Source of the DNA: an uncultured Actinomycetes bacterium
GTDB lineage: Bacteria > Actinomycetota > Thermoleophilia > RBG-16-64-13
DNA length: 64,000 bases
Direction of reading: 5' to 3'
Assembly (NCBI GenBank): GCA_963706025.1
Contig: CAVPLM010000005.1
Coordinates: 928,001 to 992,000, forward strand
The translations under genes were made by a program, and so were the position numbers. This document shows positions 1,238 to 43,609 of the stretch, one piece after another (position 1 is the first letter of the stretch; each line of letters begins with the position of its first letter). The notes below the pieces were generated by a model, which did not search any database, was not told the origin of the DNA, and was given only the letters and a program-made list of their open reading frames with translations.

Positions 1238-1846
1238 CTACCGAGCCTCGCTCCCCAGGATACTCTCGAGCAGGCGGCGGAAATGGTCCAGCGGTTGGGC
1301 GCCCACCACTCTGGTCCCTCCGGTGAAGATATAGGTGGGAACGCCGGTGATGCCGAGTCCGCGAGCTTCCTCGTAGGCAGCCTCGCGCACGCCCGCGTAC
1401 CGGCCGGCGGCCAGCTCCTTCCGGAGGGCGACGGGGTCGAGACCCAGCTCCACAGCCAGATTGGCCAGCACCTCTGGATCACCGATGTCCTGGGAGCGGG
1501 CGAAGTAGGCGACGAGCGCCGCCCGGTGGAACTCCGGATGCTTGCCTGCATCGCGCGCGAACTCGGCCGCCTCTACCACCAGCCGCGAGTTGGAGAGGAG
1601 CCGGGGCGCTTCGAAGGGAAGGCCGAGTTCGGCGCAGCGCCGGCGCTGGCCCTCCTGGCTCTGCCCGATACCCGGGCCAAACAGGCGTTCGAGCAGCACG
1701 CCCTCGGGCGGCGTCTCGGGGTGGATCTCGTAGCTGACCCACGTGTCTTCCAGGGGGAATTCCTTCTTCAGCGTATCGACAATGCCCGTGCCGATGTAGC
1801 AGTAGGGTCAGATGTAGTCGGAGAAGATGCGCACCGCGATGGCCAC
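1238..1846 (-). CDS. DsbA/FrnE-family thiol-disulfide oxidoreductase, selenoprotein (Sec at codon 13, UPYC motif)
   Basis: GTG at 1846 after a GGGGG purine run; MAIAVRIFSDYI(TGA 1810-1808)PYCYIG...EIHPETP is in frame with ORF 1238-1699 (GITGVPTYIF, GAQP). Confidence 0.9.
1775..1795 (-). promoter_or_regulatory. Candidate bacterial SECIS hairpin
   Basis: ATCGGCA-CGGGCAT-TGTCGAT: 7-bp stem with one G-U pair and a G-containing loop, starting 12 nt after the in-frame UGA. Confidence 0.65.
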
Positions 1847-1903
1847 GTCTCTCACCCCCTTGCGGATAGTCCGTTTCGTCGGTCCTCGCTCAAAGTAGCA
1901 CCT

Positions 1904-17855: not shown

Positions 17856-18265
17856 TTGAAAAAGAAGACATATCCCCTCTTCTACGCGGGTCAGAAGGCC
17901 AAGTATGCCCGGTCGGTCGTGGTAGGCGACCTGGTCTTCGTGTCCGGCGCGACCGGCCGCTCTCTGAAGACCGGGGATTTCACATCCGACGAGATCAAGG
18001 GGCAGATGATGGTCGCTCTGGACAATATCCGGGGCGCCCTTGAAGAATGCGGCAGCTCCATGGACAACATAGTCAAGACGGTGATGTACCTCAAACGCCT
18101 GGAGGACTACGGCGTCATGCGGGCAACGGAAGAGGAATACTATCGGCAGTACGCCCCAGTCTGATCGACGAGCCTCCGGCCAGCACTTTCGTGCAGCCGA
18201 TGTCGCTGGCGCGCCCCAACATGCTCGTGGAGATCGACGTGGTGGCCTGCCTGAATGAGGAGTGA
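17856..18265 (+). CDS. RidA family protein, one frameshift near 18155 (probably a C missing from a C-run)
   Basis: YARSV..GDLVFVSGATG...ALDNI joins PPASTFVQPMSLARPNMLVEIDVVA in the next frame; GAAAGGAG SD. Confidence 0.85.
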
Positions 18266-18281
18266 GCAGGATGGAGTGTCA

Positions 18282-20532
18282 ATGATCAGAGAAGAGGGTG
18301 TGCAGGTGCACCGGATGGGCGCCTGGTCTCCGGGGCCTGGCTGTCATGGCGGATGCGGACTCGAGTTCCACGTAAAAGATGGAAAGGTCATCAAGGTGGA
18401 AGGTGACCCCGAGCATCCCTGGTACCAAGGAAGGGTTTGCCCCAGGGCCCTGGCCATGACCCAGTTCATCTACCACCCCGACCGCCTGCGGCATCCACTC
18501 AAGAGGATGGGGGAGCGAGGAGAAGGCAAGTGGCAGGAGATCTCCTGGGAGGAGGCCTTCGACACGTGTGAGAAGCGTCTGCAGAGAGATCGCCGAGAAG
18601 TGGGGTCCCGAGTCGGTGATCTTCTCCCAGGGGACCGGCAGGGATGTCGGGGGACCGATCGTGATGCTGGCCTATGCATACGGTAGCCCTAACTGGACGA
18701 TGTGGGGCCTGTCGGGGCACTCGTGCTTCACCCTCGACTGGCTGCCGGCTATGTGATCCAGGGAGACTTCACCTTCCCGGACTACGCGCAGTTCTTCCCC
18801 GAACGCTACGAGAACTCGGAATACGTGCCTCCCAAGTGCCTCGTACTATGGGGTCGCTCGATCGGTCGCGGCTGTTCCGACCACTACACGGCGGATCACT
18901 GGGTGATCGACGTGATGCGACGCGGAGCCAAGGTGATCGTCGTCGACCCGCGGGAAACCTGGATGGCGACTCGTGCCGACCTGTTCTTGAGGATAAGACC
19001 GGGAACCGACAACGCCCTGGCCCTCGCTCTTATGAATGTCATGGTCACCGAGGATCTGGTCGACAGGGCCTTCATCGATGAATGGTGCCTAGGGCTACGA
19101 CGAGATGGCCGAGAGAGTGCGGGAGTTCACGCCCTGAGTGGGCGGAGCCTATCACCTGGATACCTGCGGAGAAGATCCGCGAGGCGGCGCGGATGTACGC
19201 GACAAACCGCCCCGCGGGTATCGAGATGGGGCGTCCGGTAGAGGGTGTTCCAGAGGGCACCCAGGCGACCATGAACATCCACAGGCTCATTGCCATCTCC
19301 GGAAACCTAGATGTGCCCGGTGGGAATGTCATTTGCCGCCCCGCCTATGGTGTGGCCACCTATCCGTTCTCCACTGAGGAAGTCATACGGCTTTACGGAC
19401 CCGACCTTCACTCGAAACTGAGCCAGAAGCGGATCGGCGCAGACAAATACCCCCTGGTCAAGAACTTCCGGGCCTGGGCCCAGGAGGACAGCCTTATCGA
19501 GCAGATGGAGACCGGCGAACCGTACGAGATCCACGGCTTGTGGATACAGGCCAACAACCCGCTGGCCAACCAAGCCCAAGATGTGAGACGCCACTACGAA
19601 GCTGCGAAGAAGCTCGATTTCAACGTGGTAGTCGACCTGTTCATGACCCCGACGGCCCAATTGATCGCTGATGTAGTTCTACCTGCCGCCACCCTCCCCG
19701 AAAAGGATTCGGTCTACTGCATCGGAGCCCCGCTCAATACCATCCACAAGATCATCGACGTTCCGGAGTGCAAGTCCGACTGGGAGATCGTCTTCACTTT
19801 GGCCAAACGCCTGAATCCTGAGGCGGTTCCCTGGGGGAACGTGAGGGAGATGCTGACGGACAGGATGAAGGCCTCCGGTTACTCCTTCGAGCAGTTGATC
19901 GAGAAAGTCTGGGATTTCGCTCCCAAAGGTCATAGGTGTGGCAGCCGCCCCTACCGAAGATACGAAGCCGGGCTGTTGCGCCCGGACGAGAAGCCGGGTT
20001 TTCGCACACCCACCGGCAAAGTAGAGCTCTACTGCTCCAGTTACGATGAATGGGGCTACGACCCTCTACCCTACTTCAAGAAGCTCGAACCCAGAGCGAA
20101 GAAGACACACCCGACGTCTTCAACGAGTTCCCGCTGATGATGATGACCGGACGGCGATCGCCCGTCCTGTTCCATAGCGAACACCGACAGATCCCCTGGC
20201 TGCGCGGATGTGACCCGGATCCGTTGGTGGAGATCAGCCTCAGACCGCAGCGGAGAAGGGGATCAAGACGGGAGACTGGGTGCTCATCGAAGGAACGATG
20301 GGAGAGTTCAAGAGGAAAGCCAAGGTCACTCCTATGATCGATCCTCGGACTGTGATGGTTCCTCATGCCTGGTGGTTGCCGGAAGAAGAGGATAGTAGCT
20401 CGAACCCATACAAGAGTATGGGACCTCAACTGCAATCAGCTGATCCCCATGGGCTACAACGATTCGTCCGGCTTTGGCGGTGGTCCTCTTTCCTATATGT
20501 TGGTAAGAGTCTCCAAGGCCGACGACATGTGA
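18282..20532 (+). CDS. Mo/W-bisPGD oxidoreductase, acetylene-hydratase/catechol-dehydroxylase-like clade; about 7 frameshifts
   Basis: WSPGPGCHGGCG...CPR, HPDRL, SGHSCF.PR, RPGTD.AL, DLFMTPTA, TPTGKVEL, FHSEHRQ, PHAWWLPE; indels near 18582, 18731, 19092, 19133, 20085, 20238 and 20413. Confidence 0.85.
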
Positions 20533-20775
20533 GGACACCAGATCTGACTGAAGTGGTCAAAGAGGACGACCTAGAGGGGTATCCACAATGCCGCGCAGAG
20601 GACGATCATCCAGCCCCTTCCCAGTAGCCGGTCGACCCCACCGTCACCGAGGCGCTGTGCGCAGGTCGGAGGCCACCGGACCCAGTCCTCCTGTACACTG
20701 TGCCTCGCGCATTTTCTGCCCGGCGGCGGCGCCCGGGTTCGCCTTGTCACTCAAGCGCGATAGGAGGTTGACTTC

Positions 20776-23700: not shown

Positions 23701-23734
23701 TGTGTAGCAAGCTGTGTAGGTGTATACTATCTAT
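23701..23734 (+). promoter_or_regulatory. Probable leaderless TA promoter with operator-like repeats
   Basis: TATACT at 23723-23728, six nt before the GTG start; TGTGTAG repeated at 23701 and 23713. Confidence 0.45.
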
Positions 23735-24013
23735 GTGGCACTCTACAGAGCCCAGATACTCCTGGAGGATGACCAGCACGACCAGCTGGAGAGGCTGGCT
23801 CGCGACTCCGGCCGGAGCATGTCCGAACTGGTGCGCGAGATCATGGCTGAGTACTTCGCGCGCTCGTCAGAGGAAGAATCGGCGCGGCGATCTCTGGCGG
23901 CCGTGGACCAGCTCTCCGACCTGCGACGCGTCTTGGAGAGCAGGCACGGCCGGCTGCCTGCTTCGCTCCTGAACGAACTGAGAGAGGAGCGGGACGCGGA
24001 GCTGTCTCCGTGA
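23735..24013 (+). CDS. Ribbon-helix-helix (CopG-like) antitoxin
   Basis: RAQILLE..Q...L..LA...GRSMSELVRE; lies directly upstream of a PIN gene. Confidence 0.8.
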   Translation: MALYRAQILLEDDQHDQLERLARDSGRSMSELVREIMAEYFARSSEEESARRSLAAVDQLSDLRRVLESRHGRLPASLLNELREERDAELSP

Positions 24014-24053
24014 ACGCGGAGCTGTCTCCGTGAAAGCGGAGCTCTCCCCATGA
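23994..24053 (+). repeat. 20-bp tandem triplication spanning antitoxin stop and toxin start
   Basis: ACGCGGAGCTGTCTCCGTGA x2 followed by AAGCGGAGCTCTCCCCATGA. Confidence 0.9.
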
Positions 24054-24472
24054 TGGTGCTCGATGCCGGGGTTGTCCTAGCGCTGGTGCTGCCTCTCCCC
24101 TTCTCCGACCAGGCTGCCACCAGGATCCGCTCGGCACGCTTGGTCCAGGAGGAGCTCTACGCTCCGGCCTTGCTCGAATATGAGGTCTGCTCCGCGCTCC
24201 GGCGAGCCGTTGCGCGCAGAATCCTTACCGAGGACGAGGCTGCCACCGCTCTTGATCTGATCGGCGCCATCCGCGTCCGCCCGATCACGCCCGCCTCCTC
24301 GCTCCATGCCCGTGCGCTCTCGTGGGCGGCCCGACTCAAGCACACGAAGGCTTACGACGCCCAATACCTGGCCCTGGCGGAGGAGATGGGCTGTGTTCTC
24401 TTGACGACGGACGGTCGTCTCGCTCGCTCGGCCCGGGCGGTCGGCGCCACCTGGGTCGAAGCACTCGGCTGA
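24050..24472 (+). CDS. vapC: PIN-domain VapC toxin
   Basis: VLDAG, YEV, YDAQYLALA and LTTD acidic motifs. Confidence 0.88.
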   Translation: MMVLDAGVVLALVLPLPFSDQAATRIRSARLVQEELYAPALLEYEVCSALRRAVARRILTEDEAATALDLIGAIRVRPITPASSLHARALSWAARLKHTKAYDAQYLALAEEMGCVLLTTDGRLARSARAVGATWVEALG

Positions 24473-26293: not shown

Positions 26294-28806
26294 CTATCCT
26301 TCCCACTTGGCGACTTCGATCAGTATCGAGTTAGGGGCGAAGCCCGCGACGTCTTTGGACAAGAACCTGTCCGAGGCCAACATGTTGACGCAACCGGCCC
26401 GGTCCACACTGCCGGGGACACCCGGTTGAATGGGGTCGTACTTGGCCGACGCTTCGTAGGCGTGGAGGGTGCCCGGCCTCACCCGGTGAGTCACGTGGGC
26501 CGCGCACAGGACCTGGGCCCGGTCGTTGTAGAGACGGATGACGTCGCCCTCCCTGATGCCTCTGAGCGGCGGCGTCATCGGGATGGATGCGGGCGGTCAG
26601 GTAGTAGTAGCCGTCGACCAGCATGCGGTGCCCGGGGATATCCCAGATCCACTCGGTATGGTCGTACATGGTGTGAAAGGAGAAACGGGGATGGGGCGTG
26701 ATGAGCTGGAGCGGATACTTCTTGGTCAGCTCCGCGCTCTCGTGTCCTTCCCAGCTCGGGATGTACCTCGGGACCAGAGGTCGTTCCGGATTGTCGGGAT
26801 CGAACTCCTTGAGACTCTGGGATTCGAACTCGATCTTACCGCTGAAGGTGGCAAGTTCTTTCCCTTTTTCCGTGTTGCGCTTGGGATTGCCGAGATCAGG
26901 GGTGTCACAGTCCCGGCCTTCATAGAACCAGCGTAACGCTGGAGTGGAGGTATAGGGTTCGGGCATGGGCACCAGATGATAGCCTTTGGCCTCGAACTCC
27001 TCCCACGAGACCAGGGAGGGCAGATCGGACCAGTCGAAGTACTTCTTGATCCACTCCTCCTCGCTGCGACCCTCGGTGTACTCCTGCTCCACCCCCAAGC
27101 GGGCGGCGATCTGAGAATAGATCCAGTAGTCGGACTTCGATTCCCACAGTGGCTCGATGCATTTCTGCATGTAGACGATCACCCGGCGGAAGTTGCTGCT
27201 GAAAGTGTCGGGGCTCATCCAGCCGCAGTTGCCGAACTCGGCGATGTCGTTCCTCTCCAGGTTGGTGCACGCCGGCAGGACGATGTCGGCGTACTGCGTC
27301 TCTCCGCACCACCAGCAATCCTGGTTGACCAGGAACTCCAGCTTCGGGCTCTGGTAGGCCCGCACCCATTTGTTCCCCTCCGCGAGGGTGCCGATGAACG
27401 AGCCCCCGTGCCGGTAGAACATCTTGATCTCGGAGTGGCCGGGCAGCGGGTACTCGTACGGGATGAACTGCTGCTCGAGCGATTTGGTGTTGAAACCCTC
27501 CCCCAGCCACTTGACCGGCGGATCGAGGATGCCGTCCGGGAAGAGGGTGCGGTAGATCCGCTGCTTCACCGGGTTGACGTGGATCGCGTCGCCCACCTGC
27601 TGCATGCCACCGTTCTCGAAGCCGGGGAAGCGGAAAGCGGAGTTGGAAGGCGAGCCCATAACCGCGCCCCAGATGTTCACTCCGGGCTTGCCCAGGCCCT
27701 GCATGGCCTGCAGCAGGACCATCAGCCGGGCCCACTCGTGGCCGTAGGCCTCGCGGCAGGCTCCCCCCATGCCGCCGCGCATGCCGGTGGAGAGGGTGGT
27801 GCGTTTGGAGGCCCATTCCCGGGCGAGCGCCCAGATGACCCGGGCCGGGATGTCGCACTTCTCCGCGGCCCACTCCGGGGTGCGGGCGACGCCGTCGACT
27901 TCACCGAGGACGCTCTTCTTGAACTCCTCGAAGCCGACGCTGTGGGTCGCCAGGTATTCCTTGTCGTACGTCCCGTCCCGCAGCCAGACGTAGGCGATGG
28001 CTTCGGCCAGGGCCGCGTCGGTGCCGGGTCGGGGAGCGATCCATTTGTCGGCCTGGATGCCGGCGGTGTAGTTGCAGTGAGGGTCGATGAAGATCATCTT
28101 CTTCCCGAGCTCCTTCAGCCACACCCGCCAGATGGCCGAATCCTGGCCGTTGTAGGCGCCCCGGTTGGTGTCGGGGTCGTTCGACCAGAAGACGATCAGG
28201 TCGGTGTTCTTCATCACGTCTTCGAGGAGGTCGAACTGCTCGGGTGGTCCCATCCTCCAGTAGAAGCCCCACACGTGGGCGGAGCCCCATAGCCAGCCCT
28301 CCCAGCTGTCGGGATTGTCGAAGTAGTCCGTGGCCCCGATCATCCTGAAGAAACGGTTGAGGGTGCTGCGGTGGGTGCCCATGCTCCCGGCGTTGTGGTG
28401 AGAGGAGCTCATGAAGGCTACCGCCTCCGGGCCGTAGTCCGGCGCGGATGCGCTTGAGCTCGTTGCCGACGATGTCGAGGGCTTCGTCCCAGCCGATGCG
28501 CACGTAGCCGGACTTGCCCCGGTTCTCGGGGTGGCGCTCGCCGTTGGGATCGAAGTCCGCCCTCCGCATGGGGTACTTGATGCGGTCGTCGCAGTAGACG
28601 CGGGCCTTCTCCGTCATGCCGTAGGGGGCGACGGTCTCCTTGCGCGGGGGGCTGAACTTCCTCCCCCCGGTCTCAATAGTCCAGGTGGGAACCTCTTCCT
28701 GCTCCCCGAAGACCAGCGGCCGGACGCGGATGATCTTGTCGTCTTCCACGTGGACGAGGATGGGGCCCCCGCCGTGGCCCAGGTTCGTGCAGACCCTCTC
28801 AGCCAT
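26294..28806 (-). CDS. Pyrogallol:phloroglucinol transhydroxylase-like Mo subunit (AthL-like); frameshifts near 28440 and 26567
   Basis: GGP..VHV, FSPPRK, YPMRR.DFDPNGER, SSHH, NPDSWEGW.WG, PEQFDLLED, GGACR, PHPRFSFHT. Confidence 0.88.
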
Positions 28807-40299: not shown

Positions 40300-42064
40300 C
40301 TACGCCGGCGGGATCACCGGCAGTAGCAGGTGCGACGGGTATTCGGCGTTGTGGTAAACGCTGTGGGTGACGGTCTTGCTGCTGCAGACGTGGTTGCCGA
40401 TGTACTCGATGTTGCTCAGCCCGGCAGTGCCTGTGGGGACGTCCAGGCTCATGATGTCCACGCAGATGCGGTGACCACGCAGGAACAGGTTGGATGTAGA
40501 CAGAAGCTCGATCTGATACTCGTTGATCTCCCCCGGGACCACGGGCTGCTGCGCCTCCCGGGTCAGCTTGTGGAAGGGAGCCCAGGGCTTGGTCCGCTTG
40601 GGATCGAGCGCCCGCAGAGAGGCCTTCAGCCAGCCCCGGGTCAGTTCCCGCTCGGGTAGATCGTCGGGCACGAAGCGCTCCCCTTCGCGCTGGGTACGCA
40701 CCGAGACGTCCGGGCCCACATCCGACAGGGCAATGATCCAGTTGGTGTCGTCCTGGTCGAGCGCCGCGTGAATGGTTAGCGAGCACGGGCCGACCACCAG
40801 CAGGTCGTCCGGCAGGGGCTCGGTCATGTAGCGGAGCCGCTCCACCTTCATGGTCTTCTTGAGCGGCATCTGGGTGAAGACGTCCGGGTCCGGGTTGTAG
40901 CTCTGAGTCTTGTCCGGAGGCAGGGCTGCCTCAGTGGTAAGCCGCTCCCAGCTGTCCAGGTAGAACTTGGTCCACTGGGTCTCGGGCACCGGCCAATCGC
41001 TGAAGGTGCGCCACTTGTTCTCGCCCATGACCCAGGTCTTGACCGGCGGATCGTTCGGCACTCCGTTGTCGATGCCTTTGAGCCAGTAGTCGTACCAGCG
41101 GATGATGTCGTCGTGCAGGGTATGGAAAGGCCGCTCGGCGTGTGCGGGCCCGGTGAACAGCAGCCGCTTCTTGGGCGCGTTCTTGGCGTTCATGAACCAG
41201 TGCTGGGCGCCCTGCCAGTGCATCTTGTAGGTGTAGGCGTAGGCGCCTGAGCCGCACACGAAGGGGATCTTCACTTTCTCAAAGTCTTGCTCGCTCTTTT
41301 CCAGAAGCTCCGGGTAGTCGTAGGGATCGACAAGGGTCCAGAAGGTCATGCCGCTGCGCTGGCCCTTCTGGGTGAGGATGTTGTACAGATGGGCGTACAT
41401 CATGTAGTCGGGGTTGTTCATTGCCCATTCCCACTTCTTCTCCGCTTCGGGAGGAAGGGGGCCCGGCTGCTCCGCAAGGCTCATGCACGCAACTGAACAT
41501 GCCCAGCAGGTAAGGCATCATCTGGAAGACGCCGCCGGGATGGAACTCGCGCGCGCTCCACATGCCGCTGTAGGCGCCCATGGAGTCATACGGGAAGATG
41601 GCCTTGAGGGCCGGGTGTCCCTGCACCGCGGCCCGGAACTGCTCGCCGCCGTAGGCTGAGATGCCGATCATGCCCACGTTCCCGTCGCACCAGGGCTGGG
41701 AGGCGATCCACTCGATCATGTCGTAGTGGTCCCAGACGTCCTCGCCGTAGTTGCCCTCGGACTTGCCCACCCCGCGGAGCTCGGTGATCACGTGGGCGTA
41801 CCCGTTGGCGACCAGGCGTTTGGTGTCGCCCCCTTCGATGACCCCGTACCAGAGGCTGGCATATGCCGGCTGAGGCGGCAGGGCCTCCGCGATCTCGGGC
41901 CGCTGCAGGTCCTTGTTGTGCACGGCGCACGTGTAGAGGACCGGGTACTTGCCCGGGGCCTTGGGCCGGTACACATCCACCGCCAGGTGGACCCCGTCGC
42001 GCATCTTCACCATCACGTCGCGCTCTTGGATGATGTTGTCGTAGACCGGTTCGTTCACAGCCAT
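40300..42064 (-). CDS. CocE/NonD family hydrolase; frameshift near 41477
   Basis: MRDGVHLAVDVYRP, RG.GKSEG, WCDGNVGM.GIS, LTRGWLKAS, YPSHLLLPVIP. Confidence 0.9.
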
Positions 42065-42322
42065 GTCGTCTCTCCTCGCTAGAATCCCGCAGTTCTGCTC
42101 ACAGCTTAATGACGATCCGGCCGCCTGGCAAACCGTTTCGGAACTCGCCGCGCGAGCGACGCCACCGGTGGGGCGACGCCGGTGGCGACGACGCCGATAG
42201 GACGACGCCGCTGGGCGACACCGGCGGGGCCGGTGAGAACGGCCTGCGATGGACGGACGGGTGGGTTTCGGAGTACTGTTCACGCGGCAACCAGAGGACC
42301 CAAGGGGTCCAGAGGTGGAAGA

Positions 42323-42409
42323 ATGAACCTCGAAACGGAGACGCCGGAGGAGATCGCCATCAGCATCGCCGCCGAGCTCGTCCGGGTGAGGGCGGGCAAG
42401 AGCAGATGA
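42323..42409 (+). pseudogene. XdhC C-terminal tail (28 aa), coupled to the next gene by ATGA
   Basis: MNLETETPEEIAISIAAELVRVRAGKSR matches the XdhC terminal motif aetPeEIAvSI.AE; GAGGTGG upstream. Confidence 0.7.
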
Positions 42410-43086
42410 GCCCGGCCGGCGGGATAGCCGTCATCGTGCTCGCGGCGGGCAAGTCCTCGCGCATGGGCACGAGCAAGCTCCTGCTACCTCTCGGCGCCGT
42501 GCGCGCGATCGAACGGCTGATCGGTTCTGTCTCCCGGGCAAACGTCGACGATATCGTCGTCGTGACCGGACACGATGCAGACAGGATCACGCCCGTCCTG
42601 GACAAGCTCGCAGTGCGTCGAGTCCATAACGCCCGGTACGAGTCGGGGATGTTCTCCTCCGTTCGCACCGGAGTGAAGGCCTTGGCCGACGGCGTGGAAG
42701 CGTTCCTGGTCCTGCCGGCGGACTTAGCCTTGGTCAGGACGGAGGTCCTGGACCGGCTGATCGACGGCTTCCGCGAAAGCGGGCGCGAGATACTGCACCC
42801 GTCTTGCTGCGGGCTTCGGGGCCATCCCCCGCTTGTTGCCGGCCGCTACATAGATCCCCTGCTGCAGGCGGATGGCTGGTGCAGCCTGCAGGACTTCTTT
42901 CGCGTGTACCCTGAAGCTGAAGTCGAGATAGAGGTGGATGATCTCAGCATCCTCATGGACATGGACGACGAGGAGGACTACCGTAGGATGAGCCGGTTCG
43001 CAGGGTTCCTCGACGCGACGGCCAACACCGCGGCCGAAGCTGGAACTGGCTCTCCGGACGCAGGGAGATGGTGCGGTGTCGCCTGA
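42406..43086 (+). CDS. MocA-like nucleotidyltransferase domain (probably the N-terminal part of a fusion)
   Basis: VLAAGKSSRMG..KLLL, GMFSSV, LPAD, GHPP, DMD..EDY. Confidence 0.88.
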   Translation: MSPAGGIAVIVLAAGKSSRMGTSKLLLPLGAVRAIERLIGSVSRANVDDIVVVTGHDADRITPVLDKLAVRRVHNARYESGMFSSVRTGVKALADGVEAFLVLPADLALVRTEVLDRLIDGFRESGREILHPSCCGLRGHPPLVAGRYIDPLLQADGWCSLQDFFRVYPEAEVEIEVDDLSILMDMDDEEDYRRMSRFAGFLDATANTAAEAGTGSPDAGRWCGVA

Positions 43087-43609
43087 AGACGCCCTCTACC
43101 TCCTATCGGTGCTCGAAGTCCCCGACCTGGTCGTACGGCATTGTCAGACGGTTGCGACCGCGGGTGAAGCGCTGGCGGAGGCGATCAAGCCGCATGTTCC
43201 GAGCCTCGACGTCGGCCTGGTCCGCGCGGCCGGCCTGCTCCACGACATGGCCAGACCCAAGCCTAGGCACGCGCTCGTCGCTCAGAACATGCTTGCCAAC
43301 CTCGGCTTGAGCCGGCTGGGCGCGATAGTGGGTGCGCACATGGTCCTGCCGGCCGAGCAGTTGGACACTCCCCTGGTGACCGAAGAGCAACTGGTCTACT
43401 TGGCCGACAAGCTGGTGATAGAGGACAGGATCGCCGGACTCGAGCAAAGAGCGGCCCGCGCTCTATCCAGACGAGGCCAGGACCCCACCGCGGTGGAGGG
43501 AGTCAGAAGGAAGATGCGGGCTGCTCAGATCATCCAGGAGAGGGTGGAGACCATCCTCCAACGTCCGCTGGACGAGGTGCTGCTACGAGAGATACGGCCG
43601 TCTATCTGA
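43076..43609 (+). CDS. HD-domain protein (probably frameshifted from the upstream NTP transferase)
   Basis: VRHC..VA, AGLLHD.AR...HA, H, VYLADK. Confidence 0.82.
   Translation: MSPEDALYLLSVLEVPDLVVRHCQTVATAGEALAEAIKPHVPSLDVGLVRAAGLLHDMARPKPRHALVAQNMLANLGLSRLGAIVGAHMVLPAEQLDTPLVTEEQLVYLADKLVIEDRIAGLEQRAARALSRRGQDPTAVEGVRRKMRAAQIIQERVETILQRPLDEVLLREIRPSI

Follow-up and report, generated by a model that had tools for sequence, protein, structure and literature searches.

A 'DsbA-like protein' family (COG2761, UxxC) was introduced as a selenoprotein family in 2005 from nine sequences of the Sargasso Sea metagenome (PMC1088965), and the sequence-only reading of the DNA discussed here was thus correct in calling such selenoproteins a known class. 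Members were then described from Anaeromyxobacter dehalogenans, Desulfovibrio desulfuricans and Desulfotomaculum reducens, in a paper that also places the selenocysteine (Sec) trait in the phylum Actinobacteria (PMC1794560). The family is listed with the figures 41 and 45 in a survey of 5,200 genomes (PMC5029168), and the table of a 2026 review gives it as 'DsbA-like protein form 1, PF01323, UxxC' (PMC13188914). The published family lists drawn on here (Anaeromyxobacter, Desulfovibrio desulfuricans, Desulfotomaculum reducens, marine metagenomes and Asgard archaea) name no member from Thermoleophilia/Gaiellales, and our search of the literature on these taxa together with selenocysteine or selenoprotein, which covered titles and abstracts, returned unrelated ones only; such lineages may be listed in the supplements of the large surveys. 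The second point of reference is FrnE of Deinococcus radiodurans (DR_0659), a cytoplasmic disulfide reductase/isomerase of the DsbA family, for which the structures 5cnw, 5cp1, 5co3, 5coh, 5e59 and 5xwh are deposited in the PDB. The active-site motif of Deinococcus FrnE is CP(W/F)C, and many FrnE members carry in addition a C-terminal CxxxxC motif, which is absent from the FrnE proteins of S. roseofulvus and D. maricopensis (PMC8945050).

We conclude with high confidence that the 64-kb stretch of DNA analysed here (the window) carries a genuine Sec-encoding gene for a FrnE/DsbA-like oxidoreductase of 202 residues, predicted to be cytoplasmic (Table 1). Between its start and its terminal TAG the frame contains a single stop, the TGA of codon 13, in the context S-D-Y-I-TGA-P-Y-C, and when this TGA is read as U the product is a protein of 202 residues with one U, which begins VAIAVRIFSDYI-U-PYCYIGTGIVD and ends LESILGSEAR. 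At the aligned start codon, ATG or GTG is present in 47 of the 80 sequences of the codon alignment (the window and 79 loci). Under translation table 11 the frame yields only a shorter ORF that starts past the active site, and much the same is seen in the databases: a protein search returned 550 homologues, and in 104 of the best 120 the match extends over less than 95% of the query (59–87% in most), which is to say that they are N-terminally short. The gene and most of its relatives are consequently stored in public databases as truncated 'DsbA family proteins' without an active site, and with automated annotation of this kind selenoproteins will be under-counted in these lineages of metagenome-assembled genomes (MAGs). 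The sequence-only reading had placed the start at GTG 1846, the TGA at 1808–1810 and a hairpin 12 nt after it, all of which proved exact, and its two further statements, that the 153-aa ORF misses the active site and that gene callers truncate the gene, are borne out by the ORF and by the database homologues.

Table 1. Features of the DsbA/FrnE-like gene and its surroundings (window coordinates)
Feature	Position	Strand	Remarks
Full DsbA/FrnE-like CDS, predicted selenoprotein	1238..1846	-	202 codons plus TAG (1240–1238); GTG start (1846–1844)
In-frame TGA, predicted Sec, first residue of the U-P-Y-C redox motif	1808..1810	-	codon 13
ORF of 153 aa under table 11, without active site	1238..1699	-	begins downstream of the active site
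Shine–Dalgarno-like AGGGGGTGAG	1851..1860	-	about 8 nt 5' of GTG 1846; spotted by eye
Core SECIS-type hairpin, candidate: 7-bp stem AUCGGCA/UGUCGAU, 7-nt loop CGGGCAU	1775..1795	-	5' arm 1795–1789, loop 1788–1782, 3' arm 1781–1775; comparative pairing, codon freezing
Possible extended lower stem, weak	1762..1806	-	minimum free energy (MFE) structure

The read-through product contains a complete DSBA domain (PF01323; residues 5–193 of 202), with a score of 86.3 bits against a gathering score of 25.6 (E 3e-24), in keeping with the DsbA-type protein originally proposed. Among solved structures the nearest are those of FrnE, 5cp1 and 5cnw together with four more entries (E 4e-21, residues 3–187), and in the alignment with 5cnw/5cp1 the U position falls on the first Cys of the FrnE motif CPWC, the catalytic position that the sequence-only reading had assigned to the TGA. 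None of the NCBIfam models reached its cut-off, the best being the Rcas_1661 family thioredoxin-like (seleno)lipoprotein (NF041057) with 28.1 bits against 190. In the homologue alignment P170, the proline of the GITGVP loop, is invariant, and the position held by Y in the U-P-Y-C motif of the window protein is F in 74 of the 80 rows of the codon alignment.

A scan of species-representative genomes at the DNA level found 364 relatives, and the best 80 were kept for codon reading. Among these best 80 of 364 loci the codon homologous to codon 13 is TGA in 77, TGC in two and TGT in one, so that the pairing of Cys with TGA at this position, which had been suggested as a check on the Sec reading, is indeed found. 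The 80 loci span Actinomycetota, Syntrophales, other Thermodesulfobacteriota and one isolate; the TGA carriers comprise Actinomycetota MAGs, many Syntrophales/Smithella, other Thermodesulfobacteriota and the isolate Alicyclobacillus ferrooxydans TC-34, and the three Cys forms (L034 with TGT, L059 and L061 with TGC) are all from Smithella MAGs. At the protein level, 20 of the best 120 homologues were aligned, and in the 13 that are full-length the U position is occupied by W in six and by C in seven, the database proteins P0004 and P0017 being among those with C. A W at this position is what a gene caller using a code with TGA as Trp would write. In a quick maximum-likelihood (ML) tree of 80 rows, from which L024 was omitted because its gene is frameshifted, the three Cys forms group within Smithella and require two changes, and they look like derived Sec-to-Cys replacements. 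All three retain the hairpin almost unchanged, the sole arm change being a C-to-T in the 5' arm of L061, which fits a recent replacement of Sec by Cys. The copy of the gene in L024 has its frameshift in mid-gene, and its TGA and hairpin are intact.

The stem of the hairpin begins 12 nt after the TGA and its loop 19 nt after it. Folded as a single sequence of 66 nt, the region has an MFE of -10.4 kcal/mol (z +1.35), a stability that 185 of 200 dinucleotide shuffles equal or exceed; since shuffled sequences fold as well, the hairpin of the window is by itself no evidence, and it is only through the relatives that the feature exceeds chance. When the window and 80 loci are aligned without gaps over 66 nt, 91.6% of the cells of the 7-bp stem are paired, versus 14.8–49.5% when the partner is slid by one to three columns, and RNAalifold recovers the 6-bp core. 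Covariation is thin because the arms barely vary: double changes occur in two of the seven pairs (pair 16–36 with 29 AU and 10 GC rows, pair 22–30 with 75 AU and two GC rows), and the RNAalifold covariation term is 0. Codon usage is more informative. Of 126 columns in which a degenerate amino acid is conserved, the four with the lowest codon entropy are those of the two hairpin arms, namely Gly19 (GGC in 78 of 78), Val23 (GTC in 77 of 78), Ile22 (ATT in 58 of 62) and Ile18 (ATC in 59 of 64); the chance that the four lowest entropies would all lie within the seven columns of codons 18–24 is 3.5e-6. Both codon 21 in the loop (entropy 0.75) and codon 24 (0.99) are free to vary. For Ile22 the high-GC Actinomycetota clade (gene GC3 0.78) uses ATT in 19 of 23 rows, although in these rows ATT accounts for only 14 of the 180 other Ile codons of the gene, and in the four exceptions with ATC (L018, L028, L050 and L076) changes in the opposite arm preserve a hairpin. 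As judged from these comparisons, the hairpin is conserved and constrains synonymous sites, and the conservation together with the codon freezing supports a function.

The model used by bSECISearch for the bacterial SECIS (bSECIS) specifies a loop of 3–9 nt, a stem of 4–16 bp, a distance of 16–37 nt from UGA to loop, a G in the first two loop positions and a threshold of -7.5 kcal/mol (PMC13188914). The window hairpin resembles this model in its 7-nt loop, its 7-bp stem, its UGA-to-loop distance of 19 nt and the G at loop position 2, which is followed by another G; it differs in energy, the hairpin alone, at -5.7 kcal/mol, being weaker than the threshold, which a 45-nt fold passes at -8.3 kcal/mol. 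The same is seen more widely, as among 78 TGA sequences the stem and loop sizes agree with the model in 78, the loop G in 77 and the spacing in 78 (observed range 18–21 nt), and the energy threshold is reached by 32 of the 78 on the hairpin alone and by 76 on the 45-nt fold. The SECIS-like hairpin that the sequence-only reading had seen 3' of the TGA is therefore present, conserved in relatives and frozen in its arm codons; its likening to a bacterial SECIS holds for the three geometric features and not for the energy of the hairpin alone, which reaches the threshold only as part of the longer fold. A search of the whole window against Rfam gave no relevant match at gathering score, and relaxing E to 10 over 1600–2000 gave five chance-level matches, none of them a SECIS. 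We also considered an extension of the stem downwards as a conserved element and rejected it: some of its pairs are kept in 73–80 of 80 rows, but in columns that coding keeps fixed as well, pair 8–43 is broken in the sequence of the window, and the extension is only partly conserved.

The window has a GC content of 63.7% and shares five flanking genes with L013, an uncultured Gaiellales MAG, at 79–89% amino-acid identity. In the ML tree its protein lies within a clade of 23 rows (SH-aLRT 99), of which 21 are labelled Actinomycetota, one 'bacterium' and one, a 1.5-kb contig (L007), Spirochaetales; L007 nests among the Actinomycetota and is probably mis-binned. All 23 rows have TGA at codon 13. 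The organisms of this clade very probably decode Sec, a prediction from comparative data that bears on selenium use by uncultured Actinomycetota. The flanking DNA gave no sight of the decoding machinery: a profile scan of the 55 window ORFs at E 1e-5 found no selA, selB or selD, and the 64-kb window contains no tRNA gene and hence no tRNA-Sec gene (selC). In the 23 loci of the Actinomycetota clade, 110 flanking ORFs of at least 290 aa contained no sel gene at E 1e-60, a setting that may miss weak matches, and across 24 loci (these 23 and that of Alicyclobacillus) there was no tRNA-Sec among the tRNA genes found, which were those for Met, Gly, Cys and Val, all in L010.

Two members of the clade carry a further gene with in-frame TGA codons. 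In L018 (9890–11770, minus strand) and L028 (10242–11918, minus strand), about 4 kb from the DsbA-like gene and adjoining ArsR-like and arsenite-methyltransferase-like ORFs, lies a gene with an MbdU-like N-terminal domain (291 bits against a cut-off of 600) and an AhpD-type C-terminal domain. The latter contains two conserved in-frame TGAs, in the contexts GCAPU (CxxU) and SEAGU, and shows matches at E 6e-29 and 8e-18 to the 'UU' modules in two curated models of double selenoproteins. Going by these scores, which fall below the curated cut-offs, the gene is related to the named double selenoproteins but does not belong to them, and its presence in two organisms of the same clade gives indirect support for a Sec trait. 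In L003 the MbdU-like gene lacks the two-TGA domain, and the window contains no MbdU homologue. A Sec trait in uncultured Thermoleophilia/Gaiellales-type Actinomycetota would, within the literature searched, be unreported, and the putative SECIS of the DsbA-like gene matches that of Syntrophales almost base for base. It is tempting to speculate, though we regard the idea as tentative and perhaps somewhat doubtful, that gene and SECIS moved between phyla as one unit, or that recognition by SelB is here unusually sequence-specific.

Readings of the TGA other than Sec decoding have to be weighed against this evidence. If the TGA were a Cys codon altered by nonsense mutation or by faulty base calling, the gene would be an ordinary Cys-type DsbA or a fresh pseudogene. 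Only one substitution separates TGC or TGT from TGA, several genes in the window are frameshifted, the base-level quality of the assembly is imperfect, and the same gene is frameshifted in the relative L024; however, the errors in the window are indels and not substitutions, the identical TGA recurs in the 77 loci counted above, which come from separate species-representative genomes, and the gene is otherwise intact, with a whole-gene dN/dS of 0.15–0.22 between the window and its six nearest relatives. Of all the readings considered, this is the least plausible. We regard it as extremely unlikely, too, that the UGA terminates translation, leaving a 12-residue leader followed by a truncated DsbA-like protein made from a downstream start such as GTG 1699, with the hairpin serving reinitiation or mRNA stability. 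Table 11 does yield an ORF of 153 aa from that GTG, and truncated proteins of this kind do stand in public annotations, but their downstream starts are not conserved among the database proteins, and a thioredoxin fold without strand 1 and helix 1 would have no redox centre. Moreover, the segment from the TGA to residue 50 aligns with the first helix of FrnE, and the 11 codons 5' of the TGA (codons 2–12) conserve their amino acids while synonymous change is free (pS 0.545 versus pN 0.215 over all pairs in the 23-row clade), F-S-D-Y being kept in 72–80 of 80 rows while the codons vary (codon entropies 0.46–1.0). As far as substitution patterns can tell, these values show purifying selection on both sides of the TGA. 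The coding pattern upstream, the low dN/dS and the use of TGA as a normal stop elsewhere in the window together argue very strongly against sequencing error, pseudogene and leader peptide alike.

The UGA might instead be read through without Sec in an organism that lacks the full Sec machinery, whether through loss or from the outset. It would then be decoded either as Cys, by Cys-tRNA(Sec) formed under selenium shortage, or as Trp, through near-cognate suppression. The lack of any sel gene within the 64-kb window would agree with this, as would the W found at the position in six of the 13 full-length aligned homologues, but these W forms come from short metagenome contigs in which the codon in the DNA is TGA. 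TGA is, furthermore, the commonest stop in the window, ending 18 of the 35 ORFs with family matches, and there is therefore no global reassignment of the code. The position is that of the catalytic Cys of a CxxC motif, the conserved hairpin fits bSECIS geometry, and two relatives from the clade possess a different gene whose CxxU module, of AhpD type, contains two in-frame TGAs. Taken together, these points make non-Sec read-through very unlikely. Within the window the DsbA-like gene stands alone in this respect. A scan for in-frame TGAs listed 35 candidates including the DsbA-like TGA itself, of which 33 (one of them shortened) were sent to Pfam and two were omitted, the TGA being plainly the stop of one annotated gene with the next gene in frame; among the 33 read-through candidates only the DsbA-like gene had a Pfam domain spanning the TGA, and no second selenoprotein gene was found. 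A GC3-based scan for further in-frame TGAs was discarded, as it gave off-frame noise only and missed the DsbA-like TGA.

The reading that we prefer is accordingly the one first proposed from the sequence, a 202-aa DsbA/FrnE selenoprotein with a U-x-x-C active site, which the frame, the domain, the Cys/TGA pairing and the conservation of the hairpin all support. Our working hypothesis is that Sec replaces the N-terminal, nucleophilic residue of the CxxC motif, giving U-P-Y-C, and that the hairpin at 1795–1775 acts as a bacterial SECIS inside the coding sequence, its loop 19 nt past the UGA. It would recruit SelB-GTP-Sec-tRNA(Sec), such that the UGA at 1810–1808 would be decoded as Sec and the chain would not end there. 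The enzyme would then cycle between a selenol/thiol and a selenenylsulfide form, probably reducing or isomerizing disulfides of partner proteins, a task for which FrnE uses two cysteines. Regeneration of the oxidized enzyme is a further presumed step; as the window protein has no C-terminal CxxxxC like that of D. radiodurans FrnE, it would have to be recycled in another way. None of this changes the understanding of Sec decoding or of FrnE-type enzymes.

Several neighbouring features were encountered in the course of the analysis. Upstream of the DsbA-like gene, at 1897–1986, an imperfect inverted repeat of 26 nt overlaps both the stop of the preceding metallophosphatase gene and the spacer that separates the two genes, and can form a long hairpin (-34.3 kcal/mol, z -3.3; one of 200 shuffles as stable). 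The window contains three copies of its core, GTTTCAGAATGA, where 0.06 would be expected, and L001 contains two in inverted orientation; about 45 nt of flanking sequence are common to the window repeat copy and one of the L001 copies. Judged by its sequence, the repeat has the look of a small palindromic element, REP- or MITE-like, that belongs to this lineage. The DsbA-like gene is directly followed, at 1070–1228 on the minus strand, by a 52-aa ORF with counterparts that are 86% identical in L013 and 62% identical in L018 and L028, where they sit just beyond the MbdU-like region; the ORF may represent only part of a longer gene. Two molybdopterin oxidoreductase genes, at about 18250–20600 (plus strand) and 26331–28806 (minus strand), each extend over two or three frames; they were dismissed as Sec carriers, being broken by frameshifts and not by a lone TGA, and are either pseudogenes or the result of assembly indel errors. 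Likely frameshifts are also seen in a CocE/NonD-family hydrolase (40300–42283, minus strand) and a DVU_1551-family NTP transferase (42109–43609, plus strand), for each of which two overlapping ORFs correspond to consecutive segments of a single profile. At 23720–24469 (plus strand) a ribbon-helix-helix ORF ends in TGA and a PIN-domain ORF comes next in that frame, an arrangement rejected as a selenoprotein because it is a VapBC-type toxin–antitoxin pair.

Comparison with FrnE reveals both likeness and difference. The motif SD-x-x-[C/U]-P-aromatic-C-Y-I-G matches the window protein, the cis-Pro loop GITGVP is common to both, and neither has an N-terminal signal sequence, the window protein starting four residues before the first strand and so leaving no place for a signal peptide, as in cytoplasmic FrnE. 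The window protein differs in having Sec for the first Cys, Y where Deinococcus FrnE has W or F (U-P-Y-C being a variant and no exact copy of CP(W/F)C), a length shorter by about 60 residues, and no counterpart of the C-terminal CxxxxC that regenerates the D. radiodurans enzyme. The last of these is not decisive for membership of the FrnE subfamily. With the DsbA-like selenoprotein family (form 1) the window gene shares the PF01323 domain, the UxxC motif with predicted Sec on the first Cys, widespread Cys homologues and a stem-loop with a G in its apical loop directly 3' of the UGA, the likeness of the stem-loops being one of published description and not of SECIS type matched by sequence. Orthologues with TGA in other organisms are present in 77 of the best 80 of 364 loci. 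On these sequence grounds the window gene is a further member of the DsbA-like UxxC selenoprotein family (COG2761/PF01323).
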